From an uncultured Planctomycetia bacterium (GTDB taxonomy: Bacteria; Omnitrophota; Gorgyraeia; 1-14-0-20-64-10), in the NCBI GenBank assembly GCA_964597545.1, contig CAZQXN010000002.1:88234-152233 (forward strand): a stretch of DNA of 64,000 bases. The letters run 5' to 3'. The translations under genes and the position numbers were made by a program. Shown in pieces: positions 4,142 to 64,000 of this stretch; the stretch's first letter is position 1, and the number at the start of each line of letters is the position of its first letter. The notes below the pieces were generated by a model that made no database searches, was not told where the DNA came from, and saw only the letters and a list, made by a program, of their open reading frames with translations.

Positions 4142-4228
4142 CGTCATCCCCGACTTGATCGGGGATCAGATCCTCGCTTTGACGAGGGTGACAAAAGGAG
4201 TAGCGGGAATGACAGTAAAGGGATTAAA

Positions 4229-36504: not shown

Positions 36505-39500
36505 GTGAAACGACAACAGAGTGGTTGTGCGCGCCGATTGATTTCCGCACTTACAATCCTTTCCTTTATCTTTACACAAGCTGTTCCGGCGTGGGCACTG
36601 CGGCCGACGCAAGAGGAGGCCTCGCCACGCGCCTCTGCGCTGCGGGAGTCCCAGGAAGACAAGACCCTTCTTCAACTGCGCCAGGCCTTGTTTCAAGTAG
36701 GACGCTTTTTCCGACCGGCTTCAGCCTCCCCCGCGACAGGATTGGAGGAGACTCTAAGGGTCGCAGCCTCCATTCATCCACCCATTACCCTGCGAATCGG
36801 TGCGGATAGAATCTCCACCCTTCATGCCGGCCGCCACACCCGTGTTGAGCGTGGAGATTGCGGTTGTTTTGTCCGGGTGGGAAAGCCGCAGAGCCAGGGG
36901 GGGCTTGATCCCAATGAACTGGTTTTGACCGCGGCTCGGGCTTTGGAGCCCCGCGGCTATCAATCGGCCAGCGCCGGGGTCATTACGCTTGGAGATGATC
37001 CCAGCTTCGACGTTCGCAAGGTACTCGGAGGTGCGGATGAGTTGGAGCCGATCCTTAGCGGACATCCCCTGCCGGATGGCGGCGTGCAATTGGTCCACCT
37101 TCGGTGGCCGACAGAGGGAAAGCCTTCAGAGGATAACCAGCATCCCACCATCATTCGGCCGGATCAGACCAACCCGGCCGAGGTCGAGTTCATCTTTAAT
37201 GGGGACATCACGAACTTTCGGGAGATCGATGATTTTCTGGCGGAGCACGGTATTCACCGGCCCAGCGGCGTGGAGACCGATGCCTGGTCGGCAGCGGCGC
37301 TGATCTGGTACTACTTCCAGCTGCCCTCTGAAGAGCAGATTTCGGGCAGGGCCAAGGCAATCTACATGAGGGATCGGATCGAGGGCAGGGATAAAGAGAA
37401 TTGGGAACAGGCCGCAGAAGAGCTTAAGGCCGAAGGAGTTCACATGCCTTTGCTGGAGGCGGTTCATCTGGCCTATGGTCGCCTGGAAGGGGACTTCGCC
37501 CTGATCGCAGTTTCCGAGAAGGAGCCGGGCAAGGCCATCGGCGCTCTCAAGGGACAGAAGCCCCTTGTGGCGGGGCGGGGTCAAGATGCCGAAACCGGAA
37601 ACTTCCTTGCCTCAGAGGCCTCCACCTTCATTGATTATACCGACCAGAATCAAACCCTTCAGTCGGGAGACATCGTGGTGCTCACGCAGGATGAGGTGAC
37701 CTTTTATCGCCGGAGGGAGGAGGGTCACCCGGGCAGGTTGGCCTTGGAGGTGATCCCCCCCGAGGAGCGCCCCATTCAACCGCTTGATATTGAAGAGGTG
37801 AAGGTGAGCAAGGTGTTCCGGGGCAGGGAATTCTCAACCTTTACCGAGAAGGAGGTTGCTGAGGGAGGGGAAGCCATACGCAGAACCATAGAGCATCAGG
37901 GTCGACTCCCTGTCCTGCGGGACCGGATTGAGGGCCGCGCAGAGCCGATGCCCGGATTGAATCTTACGGATGAAGACTGGCGAAAGGCCCGCGGACTTCT
38001 TCTGGTTGCCATGGGAACGGCCAACTATGCTGCGGAAGCGGCTGCCCCTCACCTGTTCGGCGATCTGGCTCTGGGGGGGGATTCTCCGGAGCCTTTTTCC
38101 GTGCGCGTTGAAACCGGCACCACTCTCTTCGATGTCTTAAGGGCTCAGATTCTCACGCTTGTCCGCCGGTCCGATCCAAACGTGAGGCAGCCAACCGACT
38201 TAGACGGCTGGGTGGCACTGATTAAGCAGCACCAAGGCGGTGCGCTCAAGCCCCTGTTTGCTCAATACCAAGGATTCATCGGAATTGCCGTCAGCCAGTC
38301 CGGCAACACCATGGATACCAACCAGATTGTGATCTTGCTTCAGGCGCTCGGGGTTCGCTTCATTGGGGTGGTGAACAAGCCGATCGATACACCCCTGCCC
38401 CGGTTGACCAAGGAGGATGGAGGGCTCTTTAGAACCAAGGCCGGGGCAGAGATGGGTGTGGCCTCGACAAAGGCCTTTGTCGCGCAAGTGATTGCGCTCA
38501 GACTCATCTCTGTCTATGCGGGTCTGGTCCGGGAGACCCTCCCCCCGGATGAGGCCGCCATGCAATTGGGGGCAATCCACAACCTGCCCGGCATTGTTGA
38601 GAAGTGGCTTGCAGACCCGAGCAAGCAGGAAGCGATCCGGAGGATTGCCCGCTTGCTCGCCAATCAGCAGACCTTGATGTTTCTTTCCCGCGGAGTGCAG
38701 GTTCCCGTCTCCAAGGAGGGGGCGCTGAAGCTGCTTGAGCTGGCTTATCTGTTTACCGTGGGGATGGATGCCGCCTTGATGAAACACGGTTTTATCGCCT
38801 ATTTCCCTGAGTCCCGGGACCCAGCTTTCACTAAGTTTGCTGTGGCGATTTTGACGGACCGGGTCAGCTTAAAGGAAACCTTGACCAATCTGAGTGAGGC
38901 TCGGAGCCGTTATGGACATGTGGTGGGCATCGCCTTTGAGAGCGACCGCGCAGAAGTGCTTCCTCACGTCGATGATCTCATCACCATCCCCGATGTTCCC
39001 GATGAGTTGGCCGCCATCGTAGGCGTTTTGCCTCTTCAAGCTTTGGCTGTTGAAACCACCAAGCGGATCAACAGAACCGGGGAGAATCTTGCTGCTTGGG
39101 CGGAGATGCTCTATTGGAAGCTCCGACAGTTGGAAACCGGAGTCAGCGGGGTTACTCAGCAGGAGCTTTTCAAGACCGCAAAGAGTGTTTTAGAACATTA
39201 CAGCCGGTTTACAGATGACGGACGCCTCGAGCTGCTGCCCACCGCCAAGACGCGTCAGGTTTACTACCTGATCAAGGCCGCGGTTGAGGCGGGAGAGCAG
39301 GGAGAGTATTCACAGATGGAGGCGGGTGTCCGGGATGCAATCCGCGCCCTTCGAGGACAGAGCCTCTCTCTGATCATGTTTTTTGATCATGAACTGGCCC
39401 GTCTTGCAGCCCCTGATCAGGATGAGTCGGATGCCATTCTGACGGCGCAAGAGCGGGCACAGGTGGTCCGTATCATGGGAGATGTTTCCTTCGAGGAGGG

Positions 39501-42500
39501 GAATACCCCCTCCGAAGTGCTCAAGAAGCTTTCGGCAGATCTGGCTGTCTTCTACAGCCAGGCGGTCAGCCGGGGTAGCACCATGAAGGGGCGGTGGAGG
39601 GATTGGCGGTTTAACAAGGGGCTGGGTACATTCCTTGGACGGGATCTGGATAAGCCCCGAGGGCTGGCCAAGGAGGTGACCGTGGATCTGCTTGAAGCGG
39701 ATCTGCGGAGCCAATTGGCCAACCTGGGGGTTCCGGAGGATCAGCTGGATACCACATTCCTCGGTCTTCAGGAGTTGCTGCCGGGGGGACAGATTCATGA
39801 GCAGCCCGGGGTACTGAAGGTTGTTGCTCGGCTTTCAGGTGTCCCTGAGGGAACGCTGCGCCGCCGAGCCATGATGCATGAACAGGCCCACCAGATATTG
39901 CGCCGGGCCGCCCCATCGCAGGATCTGCTTTGGGCCGTGCATCAGGCGGTTGAGGCGGCCGATCTCAGGCGCGTCGAGGAAGATCCCCGCTCCTTCGTCC
40001 CTTTTCAAGCCGCCTTCGAAAAAAGGTTTCGCGGCGGCCACTTTCCCACACGGCAGAAGTTTCTTGAGGAGCTGGTGGCCAAGTACGCCCTTGCCCGACT
40101 GACCGGCACTGCAGAAACGCGCTATGCGCAGGTCGCCCCGGAGATGGAGCAGCTCTTCAACGGCACGAATCTTGATTGGCTGCCTGATGTGAAGGAGGCA
40201 TTGGCGGCTGATCTGGGCATTCCTGCGGAGCGGATGGATCAAGCGGGCATGATGCCCGGGACCTTTGGCCAGCTTTTTGATCCCAGCTTCCGCCCAGAGT
40301 GGGACCAGCGGGCTTCCACTGCCACCCCGGAGGTGATCAAGGCCAGGCAGATGAGCCGGCTGGGGCGAGCACTCGGTTTACAACCGGGGTTGGGGTGGGA
40401 CGCCAGAGAGATGCGGCTCCAGAGATCATTGGCCCGTTACGACCGCGCCCTGCGGACAGCGGCTCCGATTCCAAAGGTCGACCCCGCTGTTCAGGCGGGC
40501 CAGGAGGAGGGGGGGCTCGTTGTTTTCGAGGTGGGCGAGGTCGCCCTGGACAACGAGGTTCGCTACACCCCAGCGAAGCGTTACGCAGATCGACAGTACA
40601 GGCTGGACCGCGCTTTGATGGATATGGTCCGTCCTTGGTTGGAGGCGATTGGGGCGGAGATCAGCGTCAAGTATGGCGATTCTTTGGCCAGGAGCTGGAG
40701 ACACCCGCAGCCTTCCGGCTCTGATCAGAGGCGCTTCTTTAGACTGGAACGGGGAGATGCAGTTGCAACCATCGCTCCGGCCTATCGAGGCCCAATGGCA
40801 GCAACGGCTCATCGGATCTTGCTGGTTGCTGTCAAGGATTCCCCTCAGGAGCCAACGCGCTACTGGCTGCTGCCTTCGGACAGCCGCCTCCAGAACAGAT
40901 TGCAGCGGCTCGCAGGGCATTTCCTGAAGGGCGAGCCCATTCCGGGGCCCCTGCTGTCCGGCTTCCTCTCCCCAGAGCTTCGGTTCGCAACCGATGTTCT
41001 TGATGCCGCAGCGGAGCGTTTCATCCAGCTTCAGTGGGAGCATTCCGAGGAGGTGAGACTCACCTTTGGCGATGCGATCCCCGGGCCCCAAGCGAATCAG
41101 ACCACCCTTTTCATCATAGGACCGCGCCATTCGCACGGCATGCTTGATGCCTTGACGACACCATTGAATCCGGACCATGCGGATCTGAATATCTCAGCGT
41201 CTCGTTCGATCGATAACGTTGCCGCCTTTCCCTTTGATTTCTGCTACGTTGTTGTCGACGCACCCCCGGAGCAGTTGCGGCAGCCGCGCGACACCTTAGA
41301 CGGACAGAGCGTTCTGGGTGCGATTCGAGAACGGGTTGATACCTTGAACCGCTTACGAACCCCTCAAGCACTTCCTGTAAAGCCCGCCACTTCATCTCCG
41401 CCAGCCGTGACTGCCGGCGGCCTGGAGGAGCTGGTTGTAGGGCGGGACTATGCGGATGCTCGGCACGTTGCGGGAATCCAATTTTTGCAGGCTGTCCAGC
41501 TCAGCGGCCGCACGCGGCTTGGCAGCGGGATCTATCTGGATCCCACCCATGGAGGGCAATTTCCGGATGCGGTGATCACGATCGGCGAAGGAACGGTTCT
41601 CTTTGATAATGCCAAGCTCTACGGCCCCATGGTCATTGGCAGAAGTGCCGAGGTCGGCGGGATTCTGGCGGGGACCGCCGAGAGTCCCCTGATTGTCGGC
41701 GCGGGAGCCACGATTCACCGATCGAACGCCGACGTTAAACGAAGTGTTATCGGGCCGGAGGCCGTGGTGGATGGAGCCGACATCGCCGATTCGACTGTGG
41801 TGCCGTTTCTGCGGGGAGTTCGGATTATTGCTCCGGCCGCGGCGGACACCGGCGCTGTTCTGGAGGGAGGCGCAGTTGCCTTCGGAGGGACTGTCGGGAC
41901 CCACGTCAAGCTACGGCGCCATTCGGTGGTAGGCCCCTTTGCCGCATTGGGCAATGCATCAGAGCACAAAGGGGTGGTTTTCATCGGGGCGACCCCGGAT
42001 GCCAATATTGAATTCCCCCATGCCGGTTTTACCGCATCGCTCATGGCGACCGCATTTCTCCCTGAAGGAGATCCGGGTTCCAAGGCGTATTACGACTCTT
42101 ACCGGCAGACCCTTCGGGCGGTGATGTTTGGCGAGTTGGTTGATGCGCGAAAAGCCGACCTCCCATCCCGCTCACCGGTGTCTGGCTCGGGTGCCGCGTG
42201 GCAGTTGGTCTACGCGGTGGATGATTCGGACGTTTCCTTCATGGCGATCCGAGATAACTTCGGGGCTTTTACAGCCGTCAGTGACTACAATTCGTTCACC
42301 GGAGAGAAATCCGGCTCCACCGCCGAAGGGGGAACGGCAACCGGAGTCCACTCGGCTCTGAAGGCCCCAGTTGCGCTGCGCCACCTGATTGCCGTTGGCA
42401 ATCTAAGCCAGGCCACAGGGGATGTGGCCGCCGGGACGCTGACTGCGGGGACGGATCAATTCACCCTTCCGGAATACCGCAGCCTCGAGAGGCCCTTTGC

Positions 42501-45500
42501 CCTCGGCAGTCACTTTGACCAGGATGTGGCTGTTCAGATGGATTACTTCAGGCGGCTTCAAGTGATGGCCGAGGTATTCCTGGAGGGCGCTCAGCGGGCG
42601 CAGGATCCATTTACCTTGGCCGGTTTTACGGCCTCCCTTGAGGCGGTTCGAGGCCAATACCAGGAGCTGGGTCCGCGGTTTCGCAAGGCGCTGGAAGGGG
42701 GCCTGGACCGCACCATTGAAGCGGTTACCGCCAGGATTCAATCTGTCTCCTCTGACGAAGGGGAACGCCTCGGTGAGCGGCTGGATCGCTTCAAGCAGGT
42801 TGTTGAGGGCAGGCCTCAAGTCATTTCCGAGCTAGAGACCATCGGTGAGGCCATCGGCAGCGCTGCCGACGCTGTTGCGCCCGCCACCCAAGCGTCCATT
42901 GCCCAGGCGGTTGTCCAGCAGACCATTAATCCCGGCTCTGTCTGGGTCAATCCGCTGGCTGCCTCCGGTCTGGAGGAGGAGCCGCTGGATAAGGTGATTG
43001 AGCATCTGCTCGCCGTCCCGGCCGGACTCTCCATCCAGAACCCTCAGGCTTATTGGCTTGAGCAGATGGCGGCGGCTCAGGTGAGCGACCTTGATTCGCT
43101 GGAGGTTTTTTTGTCGGATAGGGCAGTTCCGAATGATGCCCTGGATTTCCAACAGCGGCAGCGTTTGCTGGATCTTCTGGACAACTACGACGCCCTCCAC
43201 CAGGTTTTCCGGGTGAACATGGAGATGAGCCGCCTAGAGACGGTCAATCTGATCCTGGCCCAGGCGCAAGCCAACGATTCAACGTTCGCGCAGGAGGTCC
43301 GGGGCGTTCTGGATGTTCCGGATTCCGCGCTGCCCACCGGCGGCGAGCTTGAGGAGATCATCCGTTTGGCCGAGGTGCTGATTGAAGCCGGCGGCAACAG
43401 CGCCCGGGCAGTCCGGGAGATGGCCCGGGCGGCCCAACGGGTTGCCATCAGCGAAACCCCGGTCCATGACGACGGCGGCAACTACGGCAAGTGGCGCTTC
43501 TTGCTGGAGGAGCTCTTTGGCCGGTTTCTGGTTTCATTGGGAGGGGACCTTGCCAACCACCGGACCGTGGAGCCGACACATTTGATTCGGCAGGTCATGG
43601 CCGACCGGCTCCCGCAGAAGGGAACGGAGGCCTGGACCGATGCCGATACCCCTCGATCCCTTCTGATCAAGGAGATCGCCACCGCCTTTGCTTCTTACCG
43701 GCTTCAGCACGGTGAGCCGGATTTTTCAGAGGAAGCGTTCCTGGTGCGGACGCTGGCCAGCTTGATCTCCGCGCACCGGATCTTAAGCAGCGCCTTCCCT
43801 GACATCCTGGAAACCAAAGTCCTCTCCAAGGCAAGCAGCCAGAATGTAGCCGGTGTGGCGGTCGCGCTGCGCTCCGGCTTCCTGGTTCCGCAGACGCAGA
43901 CGGTCAACCCCGAGCAGCTTGCCAGAGCCCTTCTTCTCTGGAACCGTCTGTTGGGGTTGTCCAAGCGGGACGGGATGGTGCTGCCGGCGACCCTGGACGG
44001 GGCACGGCTCTATTTTGTCTACTCGGATCGCCTCGCGGCGGAGGAAGCGTCTCCAGAGGGTGTTGTAGAGTCCATTCGGCTGGGAGATGCCGAGATCGAT
44101 CCAAACGATTACTTCGTCCTTGCGCTGCCCGGCAAGAGCCTGGTCTTGACCGATGGATTGGGCCGGCGGCTGCAGTACGAGGCGGGTGAGCGCGCCTATG
44201 TCGCTCGAGAAGACGGCGAAATAGTCAACCGCTTCGAGGCGTTTCCCGCCCAGATCAGCAAGGCGATCCACCAGCGGCTCAGAACGGTCGATGAGATCTC
44301 CCTGGTTCGCGGGGAGGACCACGCCAGCGAAGAAGACACCCTCTACAAAGATGCCCAGGTCATCGCCTGGGGGGCAGAGTTCCCCTACAGAGCTCTGCCT
44401 CAGGCAAGCCCTGTTTCGCAGCGGCTGTATCAGGCGATTCTGGACGGTGAAACGCAAATGGAGACCATCGTCTTTGGACCCGGCTCTGAGGGTACCTCCA
44501 TCGCACCCCTCTTCTGGCGTCGAGAAACAGTGGAGTTTCTCCGGCAGCTTGCTAAGCGCAGGAGGGATGGCAGGCGGGTACCCAGGGCGGTCTTCATCTT
44601 CAATCCAACCGAGACCAACGACTCCTTTGGCCTGGGGGTTGAAGGGCAGATCCGCAACCACGAGATGATCATGCGCGAGGTCCTCAAGGATGAGACAGTT
44701 CAGTTTGAGGAGCTCTTTCCGGAGATCCTGCTCTTTGACCACACCGATCCCTGGGTGACCGCACCGAACCCGGCGGTGGCCAAGGAGATGGAGCAGATCA
44801 CAGGCAAACCGGTTGCGCCTGAGGATGTGGATTATGCTCGGATTCTCGGCCCTTCAGCGGATGAGGAGGCGGCCGGAGTGATGCACGGCCGCGTCAAGAA
44901 AAACCGCCGGCCGCTCCCTGTTGACGATGCGCTCATCCAACGACTCAGAGATCGGTTCGAGGCGGCCGGAGGAAAAGTCCATCTGGCTCCCTTTGCCGAT
45001 GTTCGGGCAACGGTGGAGTCCAGCCGGGGCAAGATCTCCATTGAGGCACGCGTGCAGGCCATCACCCACCGAGCGGCTCCCATACTCTTTCCAAAGAGCA
45101 GGGACCTTCTGCTTCAGGCCGCTGTCCGGCAAGAGGGCCGGATCTACGAGCAGAAGCACGGAACGCTCCCAGCCCCGCAGCAGCTGGCAGAGTTCCTCAA
45201 CAAGTTCGGGTATGAGACAAATGCCGACGAGGTTGCTGCCATCGCCGCCGGCCAGGAGGAGGCGGATCTGCTTGTCAGTGAAGCCATCGCCTCGGGCCAG
45301 CTTGCCGCCCAAGATTTCTACGCCAAGCCCAGTTCCGCGGGGGGGACCACCTACGTGGTCCCGGTTCCGGCCCGGCAGGAACCAGCCCCCATGGAGCTGT
45401 GGTGGCAGGCCGGCCTTGAGGAGCCCAAGACAGTACCCCCTCACACACGGAAGATCCTCTACGCTGCCACCCTCGCCGCAGCCATAGCTCAGCGCAACGA

Positions 45501-45774: not shown

Positions 45775-45784
45775 CCTTAAAATC

Positions 45785-45797
45785 GGTACCAGGTACC
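45785..45797 (+). repeat. ggtaccaggtacc palindrome in the 46-nt spacer between the two largest genes. It is the first of three closely spaced copies; the others are at 45927 and 45954.
   Basis: 'aaatcggtaccaggtaccaaag' in the intergenic spacer. Confidence 0.8.
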
Positions 45798-45820
45798 AAA
45801 GAAAAAGACACGACGAGATT

Positions 45821-57800: not shown

Positions 57801-60800
57801 CGGCCGTTGTCGAGGAGGACCTGCAGGGGTTGCTGGACGGTTTGCTGGCCGGTTTCACCCCTCTTCTGGGGGCGCATCAGGGTCAAGACGCAAAGGCTTT
57901 TCGGAGGCAAGAGCCGCAGGTTTTTAGCGCGCTTCAGATGCAGTCGGTCATCCCCATGCGCCAAATGGCGCTCTATCAATACGAAGAGGGTAGGCGTATT
58001 CAAGCCTATGTTGAGGCTGCCCGGCGAGGGGATGCCAAAACTCTTGTTGAGCTCTACCGTCAGGCCCATGACGGAGACCGGGCGCTCTGGAGTTTGGGGC
58101 CGGGCGGTGAGTTCGTCTTGACCCCTTGGGGTGAGAGCCAACCCAAAGAGGCCTTCTTCCGGAGCATCCCTGAGATGGATGAGCTTGCGGATCAATTCCG
58201 GGCGCACATGGAAGGCCTTTTTGCAGAGAGGATGGGCACCCCGGTCGCGGAGCTGCGCGTCTTGGCGGCCGGTTTGGGCGGGGCCTTTGCTCTGGGTGTT
58301 CGAGGGACAGATGAGGTACCTGTTGAGGAGGCGGTAGCTGCCGCGAAGAGGTGGTTTGACGAGCGCAAGCTGGAGGTCATTGAGGTCAGGCCCGGCGGGG
58401 GGGCAATGACCGTCGAGATGCCCACTTCACCCCCCACCTCCGCTTCTGCCACCGGCCAGGAGGAGATGTTGGGAGGGGTGCAAGAGCAGATTCGGCAGGC
58501 CAGCCCGCCAGGGGTGACGTTCGATCCCCGGCCTCGCGGCATCCAAGCGAATGGCAGGACGGCTTCTCAACAGGAGTTCAGCCTCCTCAGTTTTGTCTGG
58601 CAGCCATCTTCCGCGGTGGATGGTCTAAGCGCCGCAGAGCAGCTGCGGGCGGCCTGGCGCCAGGAAGGATTTCCTCCGGAGGCGCGGATACAAGGGGGCC
58701 CACATTTCCTCAATGTAGCCCTCCTGGATAAGCTCGATACGATGAAGAGTATTCTAAGGGAAGAGCTTCCAGACAGAGAGGTGGCTATCATTGCGGGGGA
58801 TGTCCCTGTCGTGGACTTCATCCGAGAGGATCAATTGGAGCAGTTTCCGCTTCAAGATTTTGTTCAGGTTTTGGTTCAGGGGCGGGGTGCGCCGGAACCA
58901 GAAGAGTACCCCCATGTTGCCCACGCCGGCAAAGGTGGCGACGGTGTAGATGATCTGCTTCGGGCCCTCACAGAGGCGATGGCAGAGGAGGGTGCGACGT
59001 ACGGAGACCTTCCCGAGTGGTTGTCCGGGTCCCTGCCGGATACGATGAAGCAAAAGCCCATCGACCCCCAGAAACTGGCGCTCTTTCTTGATGTGGACGG
59101 TACGGTGCTGGAACCGAAAGACACCTTTGATCCGGCGCAGGACGGTGTCCAAGGCCAGCATTTTCAAGGCGAGCGGGTGAAGCTGCTGACACAGCTTGCA
59201 GGCAAAGGGGTTGAGACCGCATTCCTCACAGCCAAGAATGCATTTGGCGATGTTGCTGCGGGGGGCGTTCATGACGATAGCCTGCGGCTGGTTGTTCCTC
59301 TGGGCAGTGCCCTGGAGGCGGCCGGTGTCCCTCAAGGGAGGATTCGATACGACGGGCTTTTTGGGCAGCAGCAAGCGCGGTACCAACCCGCCGGAGGGCT
59401 TCTCTGGAGTCGGGCAGAACTGCCGGAAGGCAGGCAACCCTTCACCCTCCGGGAAGCGGCAGCCATTCTTCGCAAACAGCTGGAGGTTGTCCAAGCCAAT
59501 CTTCAATCTGCCGGCTTGCAGGAGAATCCCCTTTCCCAGGTGGAAGGAGAGATCCGGGATGCAGGCAAACAGTTGGGATTGGACCTCTATCCGCAGTGGG
59601 GTGCCATCGATCCGGATGGCAGAGATGCTGCTCACAATCCGCTCTTTCTGGTCATCGAGTGGGACTCTGACCGATCCAACGCCGTTGATGCTGAGAAAGC
59701 TGGCGAGCAATTAAAGACCGATTTAAAAGCAATCCATCCCCTATTACCAGGCAGGGTGGTTCCGAGAGGCAACCTACTCAGCGTGGTTCTGCCATCAAAG
59801 CTGTGGAGTTTAAAGAGCATTGTAGAAACAGGATTTCCAAACAAACGAGTGGTGTTGGTCATTGGGGACCGGCTGAATACAGATTTCTACCATCCAGGGT
59901 TGGGTCACTCATTTCTGGACGCTCCTTACGCCTATGCGCAATTATTGCTGCGCAAGGTCGATCCAGCCTCGATACAACCTTATCCTAACCTTGTGATGAC
60001 CGAACAGGAAACAGAGGCAGGTTTCGATCAGGTCATGCAAGTGTTGCTCGATGCCATCGCCTCAAAGGGGCGCTATGAAACGCTGCCTTTCCTAGGTCCT
60101 GCCTTGAGCGCTCAGGGGGTGACAGGGCCGATCCAGCCGTCAGAGATCCTGATCTTTTCCGATGTGGATGGCACGATTTTGAGCTCCTTGGATACGTTTG
60201 TAGAGGCTGAGGATGGTGTGCAGGAGCAGACATTCCAGGCAGATCGGCTGGATCGAATGGTTCAGCTGGTTGGTCGCGGGGTTGGTTTCCAAACTTTGGG
60301 GGGGAAGGTGCTCCACGACCTCTCGGGGACCCGCGTTCGGACGGATGCCCAGCGGCTCATGGATCCCTTTGTGGCCACCCTATTGGATCGGAAGATCCCC
60401 TTGCGTGAAGTGGCCTACAATGGCGGTTTAGGGGTTCAGCGGGCTCAACCCATTGCCGCCGGTGAGTACAATTTCAGTAGGGGTGGTTTCCCAACGGAGT
60501 TGGAGGAGCTCACCGATCAGCAAGCGATTCAAGTTTTTCACCTGATGCTGGAGGCCATCCAGGCGAACATTCGTCCGGATGCCACCGGCCAAGAGGAGGT
60601 CATCCCGCTTCCTGCGGGGGCTGCCCAAGGGCACCTTGTTATTCTAACTCCCGATATGGTTGAACCTGCGATCGGGGCCTTGTCTATCTTGAAGCCTCCA
60701 CCCGGCGAAACCCTACAACTGGCCGCCATTGTTTCCAATGCACGTCAGGCAGCCGTGGTTACTGTCGGTTTGGAAGAGGCAGGGTTAACCCTTGCCCACC

Positions 60801-61009
60801 CGATGGTGAATCTCCAGGAAACCGGTTGGACCTTGGGAGAAGCGATCGTGGATATCCAAATTCGCGCCTGGGCCGATGCCATAGAGACTTTTGTGGTACA
60901 AACCTTCGGCCAGCTTAAAGGTTTGGGAGCTTACCTTAAGATCCCAGCTGCCTCCATTCGCACCTGGTTCAAGCGAGTCGAACGAGCCGTGCTGGGGATT
61001 CAAGCATAA
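45821..61009 (+). CDS. Giant secreted multidomain protein (5062 aa). It has a signal peptide and the conserved post-signal module. Embedded enzyme-like folds: an ATP-grasp (~55600-56415), a GHMP kinase (~56900-58420) and two HAD-like DxDGT modules (~59070-59330 and ~60140-60400). Recurrent G-L/Q-E-E linkers punctuate it.
   Basis: Single 15-kb frame with ATG start. N-terminus 'IWIRLSAWVVIQALVVTHLSPAFAEPK...LRASQRESKGGLEEL'. Confidence 0.7.
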   Translation: MNGLDNRKIWIRLSAWVVIQALVVTHLSPAFAEPKIGTRYQDQKSVPGTKTLRASQRESKGGLEELREALTEDAPQAPTETSPASGLEETMVDAGGVHGPGFGLLLEADEAALGRYGTEAAKEFAKTGVPVPKLGEGERVGRSSLSFSGRANGIFGRAKIGQFQLNAEERHRRPQAAATRNRLQAGLNFLAGQQRRERAQSELVLELLPLITPLVRLNASAAALRSAERRMDELIDRLDALGEGRGVRAEVARQLQAHLEAWRGGAGENQLMTQAQRVLLAQRVDALILEGQLSAGALQQAERLQEQLEQERYGVYEDQAPEKQKGISFNGVSLIAHLISFARIPTQRLAQRLAQSSAKGRIPLELWVDHDRLLDIPPLSDLRYRGEERVMRLDLTTPHRVNGFDAGGQLYGLALFNQLQAVVQAAEPAGPTPPWLDPVELGAKENLLTSFTCYETWAPQAQQALAQTLKDRHIDSGHHFRWFLTSGAYGTPLEKELAAERLMGRTRLVLEYDQGDPDDPESIISILESETDLEVLSDRIAPLLTGSASPAMAAANAARVGRWAQSTGRLLVGTRAGLASFVEAIAMAGARQLSVKELEAQVRGLVAWLDETRVDLQTPELGAVRDFSAVRGVAMELVNLAGQKTVFDAQLQGAIQRFDARLGEFHASVVKELRSLRTEQAGVIAREKAASGRSRRESRLARDLAVIQKKVDQLDGIMSALKEARAQAPKGEPVQVIIFQRPSARGVRNIAVGATGKDIYFSTDPKLNALLAKGAHNAHFTPFERVYIAVVDVLVEPLPAYANFFMLELKGGRNELVPFVDRKAMLAMFSNSSDSMRQNIRHRFESWWIGMAQRIVARQMQAEDEVERIQREHGVDEADALRWLIWERGWEPLVGQVAAVAERTRDNLLEQVFSLKGKYLIDERDALELAVRDDSSTQNLLGRLRDQAEAADEPFDQFLDTFTRRHRLIQRGRVLAQRALERPQGMFQVHNLTTMGPFETATSNREVLERSFAAGNVVDHYRLDGKVRAILRHWNDRTTAVAETVVRELDYSGYLDEAIEEFRGSPSNPKDRARGLRSIMDSYPEVGDEVIKIVLLLEAQEKRRWEGRLVEAAGTLMESAPYQKEAEDLEAVAGENGWDLQTPEGRFRATFEVLKRSSPLREAAISQAGPIRSAAGDLVEIEAVEERVRFHTESPTQQEDWRLRAARAVLDDFGVEPASGKNPLETVEANPDYQRAYRASLYSWARDEVIETLGLAEAQEDFLYLRNAGSTGMGLLTAREQAIWETGLSHELDNPRFQYNATGPAQGFLQGASMSQIDTGRDQVPSVIGLRKMVAGLDVRATAEAARVYETFNLAGVTRMNDPRIEEILKVVANLLWGAHHYLTEGIHVNIQAVGGDTMPMAHEQAVAENMAADLGAAIRRHAPAGFNWTLERFVREWNLRLDRLIKNGLWFYGGFCILKEPNLLFAAIKATLHPETRNQMLEAFGVPPQLRPEVLADLRRAMRMRQAFESEEEWTEHAHRFLMSRQKVYFEKLLPVAETQGPGTTLSTTLHLPRLPALLKYLQLRGIIAESGRRQDERTLQFRLADWVNKMLAQASIVNRMGLVRKIHETRRVLEELGVPMSEAVIVRGAPYKAGSELEYDAFLKAIFAITDVRGSPGIYILLIDSLLGKDGFFDEFDREGKELVRELLGGDAGFIPPADVRFVGPGSIGDAYDFVPRNIQQKHYGGMDLNTIHKEAVELLGRHGISREQIRAAAQEHGADLTKWSVLNDLDAGDREEVLQALAGWRLILANGERGLFRSYAQAIQGAHVIDLGIPEPELLDLLDEPTRLLGLARQGRGPDAPVALIDATAGSADSALGIRQPIWPKLKELLALGRRVDVEGKPYYTVGYGGSIDETVQQARIEQEAQGTFGEDLEAALLAGDYETADRLFTNFQGWVRNNNKHNEAQDDLSWVIGKRMGGQDARTEPTLPGEKGLRTVRRFDIQARVMSRLAAEDFSLAQANTADLVMAGLFYRLNGRLSREELDARLSRLAQALEDYRTHTGGDPTRKPAIVNVSQDDVDFVAQKVLLTRYEPDREEEQERVLATGQRGAGKAVEQGAERAVQAKRAARVSSSRVAAQRTQQRKAFQAARDGKAGSGLEEVSEGVDQAMEAVSAHGVPLAQITPEAFGRFLGHAQTAVEALVDAVLPPDTSLTAEQAELRRQALEFSHQFFNDGGAIRREAYYERQGGANVGLGPALGELAWQAREDEGLRETVAQVEVLLQTAMFVDAMVEVETPARFYEQLVEIFEMTLDSHRFYALPYLWSERERGLAFSGYSYDEKFALSRRLYGWLYRYLHAQFLERTEFGQMPAEYVDAVLGDATRGVWHIGIGHLENEDLQHWMSFKRFRDLAFWRNEHYMLPFVLTGASPTVFKMESRTNLIFTYGMGDMTVATHLTRAPLLEKHDTNVFQTAYPVHAETGDDTHPLEPQIHDGLTYVSLRRLHEILAGIGTPGAEIDRISGGIVRQFEEEMRRQGYNERQIEAVKASPHGIAVPILVQFSQPAAVHGGYVHDFRRERGPFDRDGGHWNQTTLTNAFTFAERFTWESLAGSGVMRPWQMNILHQEYRDWVEEGLSTEQIADKLLARIVDFMNSTPRLTHEGRLVTRAEMESGGRQMLIALLMQGREFVEKDLELVVHHALGILRGQNAVFKEFLESYATQYLTREAQEMIAEWFSRVRGIPVSLDHYPLTALFDYSRAIMVLGPDGYEVPYLILVLATQEIANFGMQGGLFVLTPEMIRPHYREAYMDALVGAADASIKSENQFLDDAQRREEILREFGRLYEVEELDDIIATPRRNLAGVADSDSHYQMVDAKLMLTDDAEGNLRWYWDEVAERRLFLFDLEDNPNADVAIFDESGSPVTWDAEHPIPMWEKPDPADESTWKPIPYYYKDATGQQHQIQIAYAAKLERNPGQGLMGPYDRMLPLHRKGEGAERLLAAMGQMGAQVMANRASIAAAPTPAPNDLQPQLLVNPTYTPIPTGERISLEAGETGEEWAQWAWERASADLGLSGLEEGDAIAPASLSVVLTHYLVAGVTARYNSSPADLQEALRNPTRAAHMARAAERFLADAELAGHLEEAGVRLTGDQPITATLQDSSYRSRVVQLAMDYLQLEERFTPLAVAPEPLSAEELETLFTDQTVYAGIFSVSPLAEQLELATLQRDFDRFSPDGKAVRVIGVSKEDLNRDATANRFLVADPSGRVREVRSLDSVKIDRAHVLELDHAKELADHREIWELLDALLVPVVNPWESAAKADDKFQTHAILRDAGIATPLAEKAVGIISARKKVEEALTSLVRRHLERQGALQQPGVHPVSLFAQPNIGSRGENLGFGAFEVVVREGEALEIHPEQRGWSDLLEHADRLIKRRDAVLTEERGSATYQGRNVVLKLLALSPDGGRSFQVESGVALVARGPGEFASPAHGAEFVEINAALRDLRFPEGQSLTQGSLSAILGTAAEAARVIGAGQILGVDLLLEFQEDRMVAVVKEVNARPGELWRFNRIEPLDEPATGPSTPLRTGLEEGASAPLTSSLLPQMAAPGVTGIRKTYPLWQWQRMVSDPEGSGFKAMLAEEFHADQIDEEIVRVRTLIDAAMGREVQIRSQEAEPLFDPGAPVALSFAPGRVRYKGGHTDIKGSGEKTINAATHFGVWALTQVLHDPKTAGRVIADNLAPEHDPFAFGLFDEGILPPVGIRQIRPDWLNFAETHGSPYKWEANIKGVPAFIRTDYLDPTGDRRRAMEGWGIRLLLSESTIPTGKGLSTSSALPAVFVWGIQPFLPPEVRLSPQQLNDVDYVAYYGGDRAGTADMTTINLGALDTILVLDSFPEGVAATVTLPPDFRYLIVDSGIERLDAASQEIRTQNFAAFIKSMTGMGPAFATIWLRHLSRSRPREYRQLEELLLTHEAGHPFGLLRELSETGALTDPRYNPMVDGDTADAREEFIRKVMGEIPNGMTVEDIRTAVVEEDLQGLLDGLLAGFTPLLGAHQGQDAKAFRRQEPQVFSALQMQSVIPMRQMALYQYEEGRRIQAYVEAARRGDAKTLVELYRQAHDGDRALWSLGPGGEFVLTPWGESQPKEAFFRSIPEMDELADQFRAHMEGLFAERMGTPVAELRVLAAGLGGAFALGVRGTDEVPVEEAVAAAKRWFDERKLEVIEVRPGGGAMTVEMPTSPPTSASATGQEEMLGGVQEQIRQASPPGVTFDPRPRGIQANGRTASQQEFSLLSFVWQPSSAVDGLSAAEQLRAAWRQEGFPPEARIQGGPHFLNVALLDKLDTMKSILREELPDREVAIIAGDVPVVDFIREDQLEQFPLQDFVQVLVQGRGAPEPEEYPHVAHAGKGGDGVDDLLRALTEAMAEEGATYGDLPEWLSGSLPDTMKQKPIDPQKLALFLDVDGTVLEPKDTFDPAQDGVQGQHFQGERVKLLTQLAGKGVETAFLTAKNAFGDVAAGGVHDDSLRLVVPLGSALEAAGVPQGRIRYDGLFGQQQARYQPAGGLLWSRAELPEGRQPFTLREAAAILRKQLEVVQANLQSAGLQENPLSQVEGEIRDAGKQLGLDLYPQWGAIDPDGRDAAHNPLFLVIEWDSDRSNAVDAEKAGEQLKTDLKAIHPLLPGRVVPRGNLLSVVLPSKLWSLKSIVETGFPNKRVVLVIGDRLNTDFYHPGLGHSFLDAPYAYAQLLLRKVDPASIQPYPNLVMTEQETEAGFDQVMQVLLDAIASKGRYETLPFLGPALSAQGVTGPIQPSEILIFSDVDGTILSSLDTFVEAEDGVQEQTFQADRLDRMVQLVGRGVGFQTLGGKVLHDLSGTRVRTDAQRLMDPFVATLLDRKIPLREVAYNGGLGVQRAQPIAAGEYNFSRGGFPTELEELTDQQAIQVFHLMLEAIQANIRPDATGQEEVIPLPAGAAQGHLVILTPDMVEPAIGALSILKPPPGETLQLAAIVSNARQAAVVTVGLEEAGLTLAHPMVNLQETGWTLGEAIVDIQIRAWADAIETFVVQTFGQLKGLGAYLKIPAASIRTWFKRVERAVLGIQA
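45923..45970 (+). repeat. Two tandem near-palindromic 19-nt units (atcggtaccaggtaccaag / atcggtacctggtaccaag) lying in frame in the post-signal-peptide linker of the 5062-aa gene
   Basis: They encode 'KIGTRYQDQKSVPGTK'. The units differ only at the central base, and each contains two KpnI-like GGTACC sites. Confidence 0.8.
55600..56415 (+). other. ATP-grasp-like domain
   Basis: 'VVNPWESAAKADDKFQTHAILRDAGIATPLAEKAV', 'LFAQPNIGSRGENLGF', 'ILGVDLLLEFQEDRMVAVVKEVNARPG' match the ATP-grasp B/C-subdomain pattern (K-loop, 'vvKP..Gs.G.Gv', 'GvD......g.yvlEvN..PG'). Confidence 0.5.
56900..58420 (+). other. GHMP-kinase-like domain (sugar / small-molecule kinase fold)
   Basis: Motif II 'IPTGKGLSTSSALPAV' (P-x-G-x-G-L-S-S-S-A) at ~57183-57221. 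C-terminal motif 'LRVLAAGLGGAFALGV' at ~58264-58299. Confidence 0.5.
59070..60400 (+). other. Two repeated HAD-like modules (DxDGT nucleophile motif) inside the 5062-aa protein
   Basis: 'LALFLDVDGTVLEPKDTFDPAQDGVQGQHFQGERVKLLTQLAGKGV' and 'ILIFSDVDGTILSSLDTFVEAEDGVQEQTFQADRLDRMVQLVGRGV' are internal paralogs ~1.1 kb apart. Confidence 0.45.
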
Positions 61010-61017
61010 AGCATAAT

Positions 61018-61039
61018 GGGGACGGTCCATTTTGGGACA
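61018..61039 (+). repeat. 22-nt exact repeat 'ggggacggtccattttgggaca', identical to the left arm of the terminator hairpin at 30534-30555. Here it has no right arm. It lies between the two giant genes and overlaps the start of the third giant gene.
   Basis: Direct comparison of the two loci. Confidence 0.85.
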
Positions 61040-64000
61040 CTCTAACATTCGCACAATACGTTGGATTCGCCTCAGCGCCTGGATTACTTTCCAGGCGCTG
61101 ATTGTTACCGGCCTTTCTTCTGCCTTTGCCGAACCAAAAGCCAGTATCGGGTACAAGCTTGTACCCGATACTGAAGCGCTGCGAGCGCCCCAGCGCCAAG
61201 AGGGCGGGCTTGAGGAGATCCAAACATCCCTGTCCGCCGGCCAGGAGGAGATGCCTACCCGGTCTGAAGGGGCGTTTGATGTTGTGGATGGCCCCACCAC
61301 GTTGGTGAAGAATTTGCCCTCAGATACTACCCCTGAACGGCCCTACCGGGGAGATGTGGCGAGTTCAGTCCTAGGATTGGCCGACAAGATTCTGCCGAGG
61401 CGGGTTGATACCCAGATTGCCTTTGTGGCGGTGTACAACGATGCGGGGATCGCTGATTCCTTTGTGTTCGACATCGCAGATCCCATCGCCAGTGTCCGCG
61501 ACTTTGCCGAGGCCAAGGGGATTGCGCTTGATCAGCTTATGGTTGCCATGGATGTGAGCTCTTCTGCGGTCAACACCGAATGGCTCCCCGATGCGCTGGT
61601 GGAGATCGGAATCCCCCGAGACAACATCATCGCTTTCCCCCAGATCCAGCAGGCGATCAACGTGGCCCTCAACAACAATCCCCGCCGGAAGCTGCATGAG
61701 CGCTCCCCGTGGTTTACCAAGTCGTTCGACATCTTGATTGGGAGTGTGGGGGCAACCGAAGTGTCCGGATGGATCAATGCCATTGCGCCCCTGCCCGGCG
61801 TGCACGCCCGCCTTTTCTTTGCACCATCTGCCGCCCGAAAGGGTCCTCGTCAAGCCCGAGATATGGACTCCCTTTACAGCATGCGGTTGACGAATCAGAG
61901 GAATGTTGCCGGCGAGCGAAGGACGACGTTCGAACTGGCGGATCTGGTTGACATGGGTGACCCCCACAAGATGTACGCCTCCACCCTGGTGACCGGCTAC
62001 ATGAATATTCCGGGAATAGAGTATGACACCATGGGGGTGACCACTTACACCAAGGTGTTTCAGCAGGGGTGCGATCCGGTCATCTTGGTGGATCGTTTCA
62101 ACTACGCGATCTCAAGGCAGGATGCCCGGGCGCAAGCCATCGCTGTCACTGAGGGTTTCGAGGGGCGGTATCCAGACGTTTACGAGTGGCTGCTGCATCA
62201 TGGGGGATCGATTCCGCCTCGTCCGGTCCAGCACGACGTCGTTAAAGCGGCTTCAGCTGCAGCGATCCCGACTCAGTGGGACAAATCCGGATGGCCGGAG
62301 GAGTTTTTGGGGCTGAGTCTGGTTTCCTCCCGGGGGTATGACCTTCAAGGCAATCCTGTAAAGACGCCGTTTCCCATCCGGGGCGACGGACACCGGGATA
62401 CCCAGGCCGCTGCCATTGCCTCCGGCTGGCTGCGCGGAATAGCAATCGGCGGCCAAGTGGATGCTGAGCAAGCCAAGCAGGCGGCCGACCGGCTTGCGCG
62501 GGATGCCATGGGCGAGAGGATAGCGTTGAACCCTGCCCCCCACCCAGTGACAGTGGGGGCCTTTGAGGGGGCCAGAGACGGTTCTGCTTCCTGGAAATAT
62601 GGGATGGTGCTGGACGCCGGCCAGGAGGAGCGCTCAGAGCTTCAGCAGAGGGTGGCCGAGGTGCCGAAAGGGAGCCTGTTTCTGCCCCTGGAGCTTGGCG
62701 GCACGACCCTAAGGGCTGCCCTGGCGGATGCGGGGACGAATGAGGTGCTTACATCGTTGGAGCGCGAATGGAAGTTTCTTCCCGGAAGCAAGCCGAGCGG
62801 CTCAGAGAATATAGCCCCCGTGAATGAACAGATCCGCGCTCTCGTTGAGGAGCTCACCCGTTTGGCGGGAATCGACATTCAGGATGTGAGCCGCTTGCCG
62901 ATCAGCGCCACAGGGGAGTTTAACGAAGGGACGACCGGGGGCACTTTTGAACGGCGGGCCGGGTATGTCCGGCTTCAGTTTTATTTGCCCTATACCAGGC
63001 TCAATATGCTGGCACACATTGCGGGCACTCTGGGTGTCGCAGAGGATCGGTTCAGTCTGTACAGCGATGTAAAAACCGCCCTCGTTGCTGAGGAGCGTTT
63101 CGGAGGGCACGGTTTAGGGCCGGGCAGGGCAGGGTATCTGACGGTCAGCACCGGCGTCGATTTGGCCCTGATGAGCACAGACGGCGAGCCCATTCCCATA
63201 GAGCTGGAGCAGTACCCTGTGAGCGGCGGTAAGAATGTCGGACACTTCGCCTCAGGAGCCCACTTGGCCGGCTTGGCAAGGGAGGAGATTGGACGCACCG
63301 GGGATAGCGTCATCATGGAGTTGGTGGGTGATGACCCCTCCCAGATCGACACTCAGGTCTTGGGTCAAGCATTTCGAGCAGGAAGCGCGCTTGCCATTCG
63401 GTTGTACCAGCAGGCGGCTCAAGTCATAGGAGAGGCCATTGTTCAGGCGGTCCAGAAAGAGGAAGACCACCTCGCAAGGGAAGGGGGCCTTCGAATCGTT
63501 GCCGGCGGCGGGGTCATAGAAGGGGTTAACAGTTTTATGCCGCTGAGCGGTTCTGAGCGGCGCACCATGGTCACAATGCTTCAGGATGCCGTGGATGGCG
63601 CTCGCTATTCTGCCGGCATGGAAAGAGAGATTGAGATCGCGCTTTCTCGGTTGAAGCCCAACCACCGCGGTTTGCTTGGAGCTGTGGCGCTGGCCAGCGC
63701 CGGCCTGGAGGAGACGCCCGCCGCTTCTCTGGCTCATAAGATTACCCAGAATCTCAGCGGCGACATCGCCTCTCTGCTGCCGGCCCTGCAGATTCAAAGC
63801 ATGGATTTTATGGAAAGCGGAATTCCCGGGTGGGAGCGGCTGGTTTATACCCTTGCCGACGGATCCCACTGGAGGGGCGGCATCGTGCATGAGGATGTCC
63901 CGCGCGATCAGATTCATAAGACCGCCGCTGTCAGCCCCGGCAGCATGGTAAGGGGGGCTGCTACCCGGCTGAAGGCAGGCGCCACGGTCCTCAATACCGC
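61032..64000 (+). CDS. Third giant-family gene (3'-partial, >980 aa, runs off the window). It has a signal peptide and the conserved post-signal module, and a ROK/BadF-type ASKHA kinase-like domain at ~62680-63530.
   Basis: The six-frame track omits it because it has no stop. The frame was verified by translating several stretches ('WIRLSAWITFQALIVTGLSSAFAEPK', 'LQQRVAEVPKGSLFLPLELGGTTLRAALADAG', 'LTVSTGVDLALM', 'IVAGGGVIEG'). Probable TTG start at 61032. Recurrent 'GGLEEI', 'AGQEE' and 'SAGLEET' motifs. Confidence 0.6.
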   Translation, partial: MGHSNIRTIRWIRLSAWITFQALIVTGLSSAFAEPKASIGYKLVPDTEALRAPQRQEGGLEEIQTSLSAGQEEMPTRSEGAFDVVDGPTTLVKNLPSDTTPERPYRGDVASSVLGLADKILPRRVDTQIAFVAVYNDAGIADSFVFDIADPIASVRDFAEAKGIALDQLMVAMDVSSSAVNTEWLPDALVEIGIPRDNIIAFPQIQQAINVALNNNPRRKLHERSPWFTKSFDILIGSVGATEVSGWINAIAPLPGVHARLFFAPSAARKGPRQARDMDSLYSMRLTNQRNVAGERRTTFELADLVDMGDPHKMYASTLVTGYMNIPGIEYDTMGVTTYTKVFQQGCDPVILVDRFNYAISRQDARAQAIAVTEGFEGRYPDVYEWLLHHGGSIPPRPVQHDVVKAASAAAIPTQWDKSGWPEEFLGLSLVSSRGYDLQGNPVKTPFPIRGDGHRDTQAAAIASGWLRGIAIGGQVDAEQAKQAADRLARDAMGERIALNPAPHPVTVGAFEGARDGSASWKYGMVLDAGQEERSELQQRVAEVPKGSLFLPLELGGTTLRAALADAGTNEVLTSLEREWKFLPGSKPSGSENIAPVNEQIRALVEELTRLAGIDIQDVSRLPISATGEFNEGTTGGTFERRAGYVRLQFYLPYTRLNMLAHIAGTLGVAEDRFSLYSDVKTALVAEERFGGHGLGPGRAGYLTVSTGVDLALMSTDGEPIPIELEQYPVSGGKNVGHFASGAHLAGLAREEIGRTGDSVIMELVGDDPSQIDTQVLGQAFRAGSALAIRLYQQAAQVIGEAIVQAVQKEEDHLAREGGLRIVAGGGVIEGVNSFMPLSGSERRTMVTMLQDAVDGARYSAGMEREIEIALSRLKPNHRGLLGAVALASAGLEETPAASLAHKITQNLSGDIASLLPALQIQSMDFMESGIPGWERLVYTLADGSHWRGGIVHEDVPRDQIHKTAAVSPGSMVRGAATRLKAGATVLNT
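61143..61172 (+). repeat. Perfect 30-bp palindrome agtatcgggtacaagcttgtacccgatact lying in frame in the post-signal linker of the third giant gene. Its arms (cgggtaca/tgtacccg) match the REP arms flanking the RAYT gene.
   Basis: The sequence is self-complementary. It encodes 'SIGYKLVPDT'. It occupies the same protein position as the GGTACC units in the 5062-aa gene. Confidence 0.85.

Follow-up and report, generated by a model that had tools for sequence, protein, structure and literature searches.

A G-[L/Q]-E-E signal at module boundaries of giant Omnitrophota proteins, with a neighbouring TIKI-like protein as candidate processing enzyme

Introduction

MARTX toxins are secreted bacterial proteins of 3,500-5,200 amino acids (aa) that are assembled from exchangeable modules and carry short small-Leu-small cut sites in the unstructured segments between modules (PMC2900308, PMC5218395). 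By analogy, they appear to be the functionally closest known case to the system described here, a set of five giant open reading frames (ORFs), G1-G5, whose products carry a recurrent G-[L/Q]-E-E motif at module boundaries and one of which adjoins the gene for an apparently secreted, TIKI-like protein of 595 aa. The genes come from an uncultured Omnitrophota bacterium (Gorgyraeia; 1-14-0-20-64-10). We analysed 64,000 nt of its DNA, positions 88,234-152,233 of the forward strand of contig CAZQXN010000002.1 in assembly GCA_964597545.1; this whole stretch is called the window, and nucleotide positions are those of the window. An earlier examination of the letters without database searches, here called the sequence-only reading, had picked out the motif and proposed that it was either a cleavage signal in a polyprotein or a conserved linker between modules.

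The likeness to MARTX toxins lies in giant, modular and apparently secreted proteins with short sites in the linkers between modules, which in the window giants would be the points of cutting. Among the MARTX effectors, moreover, RRSP belongs to the TIKI family and is an endopeptidase (PMC6254334). The differences are several. Pfam and NCBIfam models (E <= 0.1 or 0.01) found no CPD (peptidase C80) and no RTX repeats in G1-G5, and the giants are therefore not MARTX members. They have N-terminal Sec-type leaders, not type I secretion signals. Their motif, small-G-L/Q-E-E, is longer and acidic; distant relatives have A-S-L-G. The candidate protease is a separate TIKI-fold protein that would act in trans, and the modules resemble enzymes of sugar metabolism rather than toxins.

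Viral polyproteins, such as those cut by 3C-like enzymes, offer a second comparison: one ORF encodes several units separated by a short, lineage-specific recognition sequence, as is proposed here, and in two related loci (L031 and L036) the candidate enzyme lies inside the polyprotein. The window giants differ in being cellular, exported and only presumptively cut, and the candidate enzyme has a fold unrelated to the chymotrypsin-like proteases.

The third comparison is with the very long proteins already described from Omnitrophota (the Archaeovorin and Dockerin types of West-Roberts et al. 2023; the 'multi-enzyme metabolic clusters' of bioRxiv 10.64898/2026.06.07.730766, with one chain tiled by numerous enzyme families). 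The phylum is the same, sugar metabolism (ROK and others) is again the prevailing flavour, and in both cases it can be asked whether the products are cleaved. The window giants are shorter, at 1.1-5.1 thousand aa (kaa) against 10 kaa or more, and Pfam finds in them no C39 or S8 peptidase, dockerin or SecA-like domain. The papers on the very long proteins report no cleavage points, and one says that this absence blocked splitting of the proteins for structure prediction. Neither the motif nor a TIKI-like partner appears in these papers, and a literature search found no prior description. On whether such proteins act as single chains or as many products, the motif with its lineage-specific forms and the neighbouring protein offer concrete, testable candidates for a cleavage signal and its enzyme.

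The junction motif

Together the five large ORFs, all on the + strand, encode 11,624 aa and hold 23 sites, 16 of them GLEE and 7 GQEE; PPAVTAGGLEELVVGR and PTSASATGQEEMLGG are examples of the junction peptides. Residue frequencies predict 0.59 GLEE and 0.27 GQEE. For GLEE the Poisson P is 5e-18, or 9e-13 when corrected for all 160,000 tetrapeptides. It is the most frequent tetrapeptide of the giants, and in 200 composition-preserving shuffles no tetrapeptide of any kind exceeded 10 copies. All 23 occurrences on the + strand, counted in any frame, fall inside the five giants, and neither form occurs in the 23 other ORFs of the window (9,422 aa). The 19 motif peptides quoted in the sequence-only reading all exist in the sequence, and its estimate that chance would give less than one GLEE agrees with the computed value. 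The span it gave, 36733-62700, was too narrow: it covers G3-G5 only and leaves out the site at 63702 as well as the five that G1 and G2 carry (920-6928).

The rule within the motif is strict. The variable residue of G-x-E-E is Leu or Gln only, with no other residue found where 4.7 cases are expected (P = 0.009), and in the giants G-L-E is followed by Glu (16 times) or Asp (twice) and nothing else. The residue before the motif is Ala, Ser, Gly or Thr in 22 of 23 sites, as the earlier reading had noticed; further out nothing is conserved.

Two properties could point to a signal in the DNA, such as an internal Shine-Dalgarno-like element or a recombination site, or to an artefact of composition: the codons GGN-CTG-GAG-GAG contain GGAGG, and modules recombine at the sites. 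We give this reading next to no credence. Synonymous codons for Gly, Leu, Gln and Glu occur at the sites in the giants' background proportions, four different Leu codons are used, and GAA, which breaks GGAGG, appears at its expected frequency; it is therefore the protein sequence that is under selection. Nor are the sites consistently followed by a start codon, and the shuffles never approach the observed count. The internal ribosome-binding and recombination-site versions were both rejected on this codon usage. A different candidate came from phage biology, G-x-E resembling the sites of phage prohead proteases. It too was rejected, the gene content of the window being bacterial (sugar transport, amino-sugar catabolism).

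Sites and module boundaries

In the 14 residues upstream of the sites Pro, Ser, Thr and Ala make up 41.6%, compared with 27.8% for positions drawn at random (P < 0.0005); hydrophobic residues are scarce there. The segments between sites measure 182-2,054 aa, with short peptides of 11-79 aa at both protein ends.

G1 (8-4141) is truncated by the left end of the window and has 1377 aa visible, with sites at aa 305 (KS-GLEE-G, 920-931), 672 (PG-GQEE-I, 2021-2032) and 1195 (SA-GLEE-L, 3590-3601). G2 (4229-7537; 1102 aa) has its first site past the leader at aa 69 (LA-GLEE-R, 4433-4444) and another at aa 897 (LS-GLEE-A, 6917-6928). The C-terminal 183 aa are common to the two proteins, are 74% identical and begin exactly at the GLEE of G1 aa 1195. 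The sequence-only reading had put the motif at the start of this domain in both proteins. For G1 the placement is exact; for G2 the peptide it quoted, GRLEELIT at aa 921 (6989-7000), reads R-L-E-E and is a degenerate copy. Where G1 has AGLEE, G2 thus has GRLEE, and a fresh SGLEEA stands 24 residues upstream of it (6917-7000). Judging from this linker, it looks as if the ancestral site decayed and a new one arose, a case of site turnover.

G3 (36505-45774; 3089 aa) has six sites, of which aa 79 (AT-GLEE-T, 36739-36750) is the first past the leader. The others are at aa 1332 (QA-GQEE-G, 40498-40509), 1639 (AG-GLEE-L, 41419-41430), 2155 (AS-GLEE-E, 42967-42978), 2916 (AA-GQEE-A, 45250-45261) and 2970 (QA-GLEE-P, 45412-45423), the last lying 119 aa before the C-terminus. 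Five of the 18 ends of BLAST homology blocks in G3 fall within 10 aa of a site, against a chance coverage of 4% (P = 6e-4). One block, with the relative P0002, begins exactly at GLEEL in both proteins (G3 aa 1639; VV-GLEE-L in P0002), and the site at aa 2155 is aligned with KT-GLEE-S of the same relative.

G4 (45821-61009; 5062 aa) has eight sites: aa 62 (KG-GLEE-L, 46004-46015), 86 (AS-GLEE-T, 46076-46087), 2140 (GS-GLEE-V, 52238-52249), 3051 (LS-GLEE-G, 54971-54982), 3556 (RT-GLEE-G, 56486-56497), 4212 (AT-GQEE-M, 58454-58465), 4923 (AT-GQEE-V, 60587-60598) and 4983 (TV-GLEE-A, 60767-60778). The last is the sole site with a non-small residue before the motif and lies 79 aa before the C-terminus. 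G5 (61017-64000) is truncated by the right end of the window, with 994 aa visible and a start codon that is not fixed, and has four sites: aa 64 (EG-GLEE-I, 61206-61217), 75 (SA-GQEE-M, 61239-61250), 535 (DA-GQEE-R, 62619-62630) and 896 (SA-GLEE-T, 63702-63713).

Modules are rearranged between relatives, and here the related locus L001 is informative. A homology block between G4 and an L001 giant begins 24 aa after the site at G4 aa 3556. The site at G4 aa 4212 is aligned with SA-GAEE-L of L001, and thereafter the homology of the L001 protein changes from G4 to G5, giving the order [G4 3878-4216-like]-SAGAEE-[G5 918-992-like]; the module that follows SA-GAEE is homologous to the one that follows the site at G5 aa 896. 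As the alignments read, this is module exchange between relatives with its breakpoint at a site.

The enzyme-like modules mostly fall below family thresholds when the giants are scanned with Pfam and NCBIfam. The clearest is the GlmS-like module of G3 (NF001484, E = 2e-87), and ordinary GlmS proteins of 610 aa match aa 592-850 of G3. A left-handed-beta-helix acyltransferase-like module is also present in G3; in aa 1639-2236 the similarity to a stand-alone DUF4954 protein of the window (16661-18622) is marginal and confined to the beta-helix. G1 gives weak CofD-like and ABC1-like matches, and G4 weak GHMP/galactokinase-like and ATP-grasp-like ones. In G5, the site at aa 535 stands 15 aa ahead of a ROK-like kinase, and aa 535-896 form a single kinase core that lacks the DNA-binding domain seen in the stand-alone ROK protein. 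As expected of polyproteins, enzyme units that are complete and occur independently elsewhere were found in the giant ORFs (GlmS-like, ROK-like and rearranged modules) together with a conserved short junction signal. The earlier statement that the motif falls between recognisable domains holds in that sites lie at limits of homology. It does not hold in that almost no domain is recognisable with Pfam and that segments may contain more than one; G3 aa 79-1332, for instance, contains the GlmS homologue and about 460 further residues.

Class II (Ntn) amidotransferases require their nucleophile Cys as residue 1. In G3 the corresponding G-D-C-G-C-F of the GlmS-like glutaminase occupies aa 117-122 (36853-36870, + strand), with the Cys at aa 119, inside the precursor; some processing is therefore needed if the GlmS-like module is active. 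The G-D-C-G is also internal, at about aa 345, in the relatives P0002 and P0003; it is present in P0123 and P0125, and P0124 has the variant H-A-G-C-G. No GLEE stands just before the Cys of this module, where an activating cut would fall. A search with G3 aa 1-1200 gave, among the matches listed, eight more long GlmS-containing proteins, the remainder being ordinary GlmS; of the eight, only P0125 has GLEE.

Related loci

The giants have few detectable homologues, and an exact look-up in an assembly index gave no record of G3 or of the GH94 protein. The 595-aa protein encoded beside G3 is far better conserved, and as a query it placed the locus in Candidatus Omnitrophota metagenome-assembled genomes (MAGs) from groundwater, yielding 35 related loci and 114 proteins. 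The source names of the 114 matches are all Omnitrophota or Omnitrophica bar one labelled only 'bacterium', and by these names the 595-aa family appears restricted to Omnitrophota.

The junction at G3 aa 1332 is retained in seven relatives, its flanks being unconserved. It reads VQ-AGQEE in the window, VA-AGLEQ in P0001, AP-AGLEE in P0002, VQ-AGLEE in L015 / L017, VE-TGLEE in L007, VE-AGAEE in L001 / P0003 and VE-AGLEG in L016. The sites at G3 aa 79, 1639 and 2155 and at G4 aa 4212 are aligned with sites of relatives too.

The form differs from lineage to lineage. In the L001 giants AGAE and GAEE tie as the commonest tetrapeptides, with five copies each; in L016 the commonest is AGLE, with six copies, and P0001 has AGLEx five times. 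Among distant loci, in which the homologue of the 595-aa protein is about 25% identical, L031 and L032 have five GASLG sites plus one further ASLG, and SLGS occurs three times in L036; several of the distant forms follow P/S-rich stretches. At the other extreme is L038, whose homologue is 91% identical to the window's 595-aa protein. The giant next to it (annotated as 4030 aa, with 3325 aa in the locus) is unrelated to G3 past the first 84 aa, in which AS-GQEE-Y is aligned with the site at G3 aa 79, and it carries GQEE, GLEE, GLEE and GQEE. As these comparisons read, the motif form belongs to the organism and not to the module, and such lineage-specific forms argue for recognition by a trans-acting factor rather than for a passive linker.

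A passive origin would be a purely structural element, a helix N-cap or a linker end that is passed on along with the modules and has no reader. Helices often begin with acidic residues after a Gly, and the sites do stand at module starts. We consider this very improbable. It leaves the strict Leu/Gln rule and the absence of other G-x-E-E unexplained, the motif recurs in non-homologous modules and, in a close relative, in giants that are unrelated, the sites change form as a set from one lineage to the next (GASLG included), and one site has turned over in G2. The block ends, the swap breakpoint, the orthologous junction that is kept and the G[LQ]EE of unrelated giants bear out the view that the motif is a selected signal at module boundaries, a conclusion that is well supported.

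Two observations on the giants of related loci may be added. They turn over extremely fast, as comparison of the L038 giant (L038:1986-11962) with G3 (window 36505-45774) illustrates. In L001 an in-frame TGA (L001:26852-26854) divides one giant frame into called genes of 2562 aa and 2600 aa, at a point where G4 has Ile3877; a nonsense mutation, an error in sequencing and read-through are all conceivable.

The TIKI-like neighbour

The sequence-only reading had suggested looking for a co-encoded protease. A candidate adjoins G3: the gene directly upstream (34688-36475, + strand) encodes the 595-aa protein, a putative secreted hydrolase of the TIKI/TraB/EreA/ChaN fold with a leader at aa 1-33 (..LALA/AP, the slash here and below marking the end of a leader). 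No Pfam match and no match to a PDB sequence was found for it. Its structure was predicted from a 74-sequence alignment with a predicted local distance difference test score (pLDDT) of 88.8 and a predicted template modelling score (pTM) of 0.84. In this model it has the parallel-sheet alpha/beta core of Ere, ChaN, TraB and RRSP. The core differs from that of TIKI, TraB, RRSP, erythromycin esterase and ChaN in being split by a helical insertion of about 300 aa.

Two members of the superfamily are endopeptidases. TIKI1 is described in PMC8191133 as site-specific, removing eight N-terminal residues of secreted Wnt3a. RRSP, also site-specific, cleaves Ras within an acidic stretch, at the bond that joins Tyr32 to Asp33, with a 2His/2Glu catalytic set of E3900, H3902, E3930 and H4030 (PMC6254334). 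In the 595-aa protein D103-x-H105 (34988-35002), E133 (35078-35092) and H500 within GGFH (36176-36187), all on the + strand, appear to parallel the RRSP pattern, E133 lying 28 residues past the His, the spacing found in RRSP; Asp takes the place of Glu as the first acid. Among 74 homologues E133, R472 and H500 never vary, and D103 and H105 hardly do. All five are conserved in 19 locus sequences, including fused forms of about 25% identity.

The gene keeps its place. A homologue stands directly upstream of a G3-type giant in the closer loci inspected, and one adjoins a giant in every inspected related locus that reaches one, distant loci included (25% to 91% identity). In L031 and L036 the homologue is fused as the giant's first module, between the leader and the first local motif. 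The 595-aa protein itself is free of the motif, and its family (66 kaa) has one GLEE and no [ASTG]-G-[LQ]-E-[ED]. Within the window there is no second TIKI-like copy near G1 and G2, and scans of the giants and of other window ORFs, unannotated ones included, detected no further peptidase family.

That this protein is the cutter is a tentative assignment, drawn from sequence and fold, with the odds somewhat against it. The giants might instead be cut by another enzyme, either a periplasmic glutamyl- or leucyl-specific endopeptidase encoded elsewhere or an autoproteolytic module, in which case the TIKI-like protein would be one more member of the pathway, perhaps an esterase. This alternative is a special case of the reading that the sites are cleaved. 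The window shows only 64 kb of the genome, the best-matching TIKI-fold structures are mostly of the esterase type, and the TIKI-like unit of L031 and L036 behaves like any polyprotein module. We nevertheless hold this alternative to be rather unlikely: the peptidase scan of giants and window ORFs was empty, the TIKI-like gene is the one partner beside a giant in all related loci inspected, at 25%-91% identity, and the protein is far more conserved than the giants.

Beside the invariant Glu (35078-35092) the sequence is EGGSRNDS in G-L-E-E lineages and EGANEKLN in the S-L-G lineages L031 and L036. Speculatively, the Arg of the former might form pairs with the motif's acidic residues.

Processing of the giants

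Sec-type leaders, with a basic n-region, a hydrophobic core and an AxA end, are found at the start of G2 (..KVWA/AG), G3 (aa 1-31, ..PAWA/LR), G4 (aa 1-32, ..PAFA/EP) and G5 (..SAFA/EP), and from them the giants are probably exported; the N-terminal hydrophobic segment could be either a cleaved leader or an anchor. The first site follows 10-60 residues past the leader.

In the reading that we favour, the giants are exported polyproteins cut at the junction motif. The leader would first be removed at AxA. The precursor would then be cut at every [A/S/T/G]-G-[L/Q]-E-E, located at the end of a Pro/Ser/Thr/Ala-rich linker, by a candidate enzyme of the TIKI superfamily, the secreted 595-aa hydrolase encoded directly upstream of G3. 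This would release GlmS-like, acyltransferase-like, ROK-like kinase and unknown-fold units, as well as short terminal peptides of 11-79 aa. The motif, being short, portable and read in trans, would double as the joint for exchange of modules among giants. What we infer beyond the signal is export, cleavage itself, the bond that is cut and the identity of the enzyme. Such processing would be in an unexpected setting, and cleavage is plausible; we put the probability that the sites are cleaved at about 0.6.

As to the bond, one speculation by analogy is a cut after Leu or Gln (A-G-L/E-E, the slash marking the cut), which would unify GLEE and GASLG as small-small-Leu and would parallel the MARTX sites. 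A cut after the conserved Glu is an equally possible speculation.

The motif might instead be a short linear motif that is never cut: a conserved partner, such as a chaperone, a scaffold, a modifying enzyme or a factor for export or sorting, would dock at it or modify it within the linkers, and the giants would remain intact as beads on a string. This accounts equally for the statistics, the specificity read in trans, the lineage forms and the position in linkers. The uneven density of sites fits optional docking, the TIKI-fold family has non-protease members in ChaN and Ere, and a protein with TPR and double-PDZ domains is encoded at 13590-14513. PDZ domains usually bind C-termini, however, and docking fits less well with where the sites lie: the first always comes soon after the leader, others are 32-119 aa from the C-terminus, and pairs 11-60 aa apart stand near both ends. 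Such terminal placement looks like trimming of pro-peptides. Further, the GlmS-like module has its Ntn Cys inside the precursor and would need a proteolytic cut to free it, and the neighbour retains a complete set of hydrolase-type residues. We regard docking as rather unlikely. The small protein with its TPR and two PDZ domains sits among secreted CBM proteins; should the giants be cut, it might bind the C-termini so formed.

Several points weigh against processing of the giants by the TIKI-like protein. Modules of ATP- or UTP-dependent enzymes are hard to explain outside the cytoplasm. Cleavage is read from sequence, from which the scissile bond cannot be deduced. The structure prediction for G3 aa 1200-1760, across two sites, has a pLDDT of 31, so that composition alone speaks for a linker state there. 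Site density varies: an orthologue in L003 has the N-terminal site only in about 3,200 aa, leaving many domain boundaries without one. Several distant giants have no recurrent motif by trimer enrichment, which is too noisy to define further forms. The motif forms follow the tree of the TIKI-like protein, a pattern that common descent by itself would also produce. For the enzyme, the first acidic residue is Asp where RRSP has Glu, and no Pfam model, PF01963 included, reaches threshold; PF04187 is marginal, matching two of six homologues (E = 0.014). The TIKI superfamily also includes esterases and a haem-binding protein, and the fold alone therefore does not settle the activity of the 595-aa protein.

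The proposal can be widened to a clade of Omnitrophota with virus-like exported polyproteins, diced at lineage-specific AGLEE, AGQEE, AGAEE, AGLEx or GASLG by a co-inherited endopeptidase of the TIKI superfamily, the junction also being the breakpoint of shuffling. We consider this possible, short of probable. If true, the last element would explain how unrelated giants come to stand beside protease genes that are 91% identical. A processed, exported multi-enzyme polyprotein system would then be added to bacterial cell biology, the TIKI/TraB superfamily would gain a bacterial processing role with a known substrate motif, and simple motif discovery could give the missing cleavage map for the giant proteins of Omnitrophota.

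Leaders, tails and other genes

The G3-type leader is unusually conserved, reading RFxAxLTILSxTFTQAxPAWA/LR (window 36505-36597; also L003, L004, L005, L007, P0001-P0005 and P0125). A second type, RLSAWxxxQALxV..AFA/EP, is common to G4 and G5. Leaders so well conserved suggest that targeting involves a step of its own in addition to ordinary Sec export. A profile search with the N-terminal leader matched only four short fragments.

Conserved tails occur as well. The C-terminal ..NLFGIxL....W.. is found in P0001, P0003, L015 and L016, which are otherwise unrelated giants, and [IL]QA-stop ends G4 (tail region 60900-61009), P0001, P0003 and L016. G1 and G2 end in LIVAA instead, with AGLED about 50 aa before the end (G1 aa 1330, 3995-4006; G2 aa 1055, 7391-7402). 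These ends may be a C-terminal sorting or pro-peptide signal.

The window has a G+C content of about 60% and is bacterial chromosome. Its ordinary sugar-utilisation genes include those for secreted CBM9/11/30 proteins, an ABC sugar transporter, a NagA-like amidohydrolase, a NagB-like isomerase, a ROK regulator/kinase and a GH94 phosphorylase, and there is also an IS200-type transposase; the same gene order is seen again in Omnitrophota MAGs. The ABC transporter has unusual fusions, a solute-binding protein-permease (24719-26974) and a second permease with CBM30 (26974-28266), and the CBM30-permease is present in L001 too. The IS200-type Y1 transposase gene is at 18709-19281, and the matching neighbourhood of L001 has a Y1 transposase as well; if it is the same insertion, its presence at both places is unusual for a mobile element.

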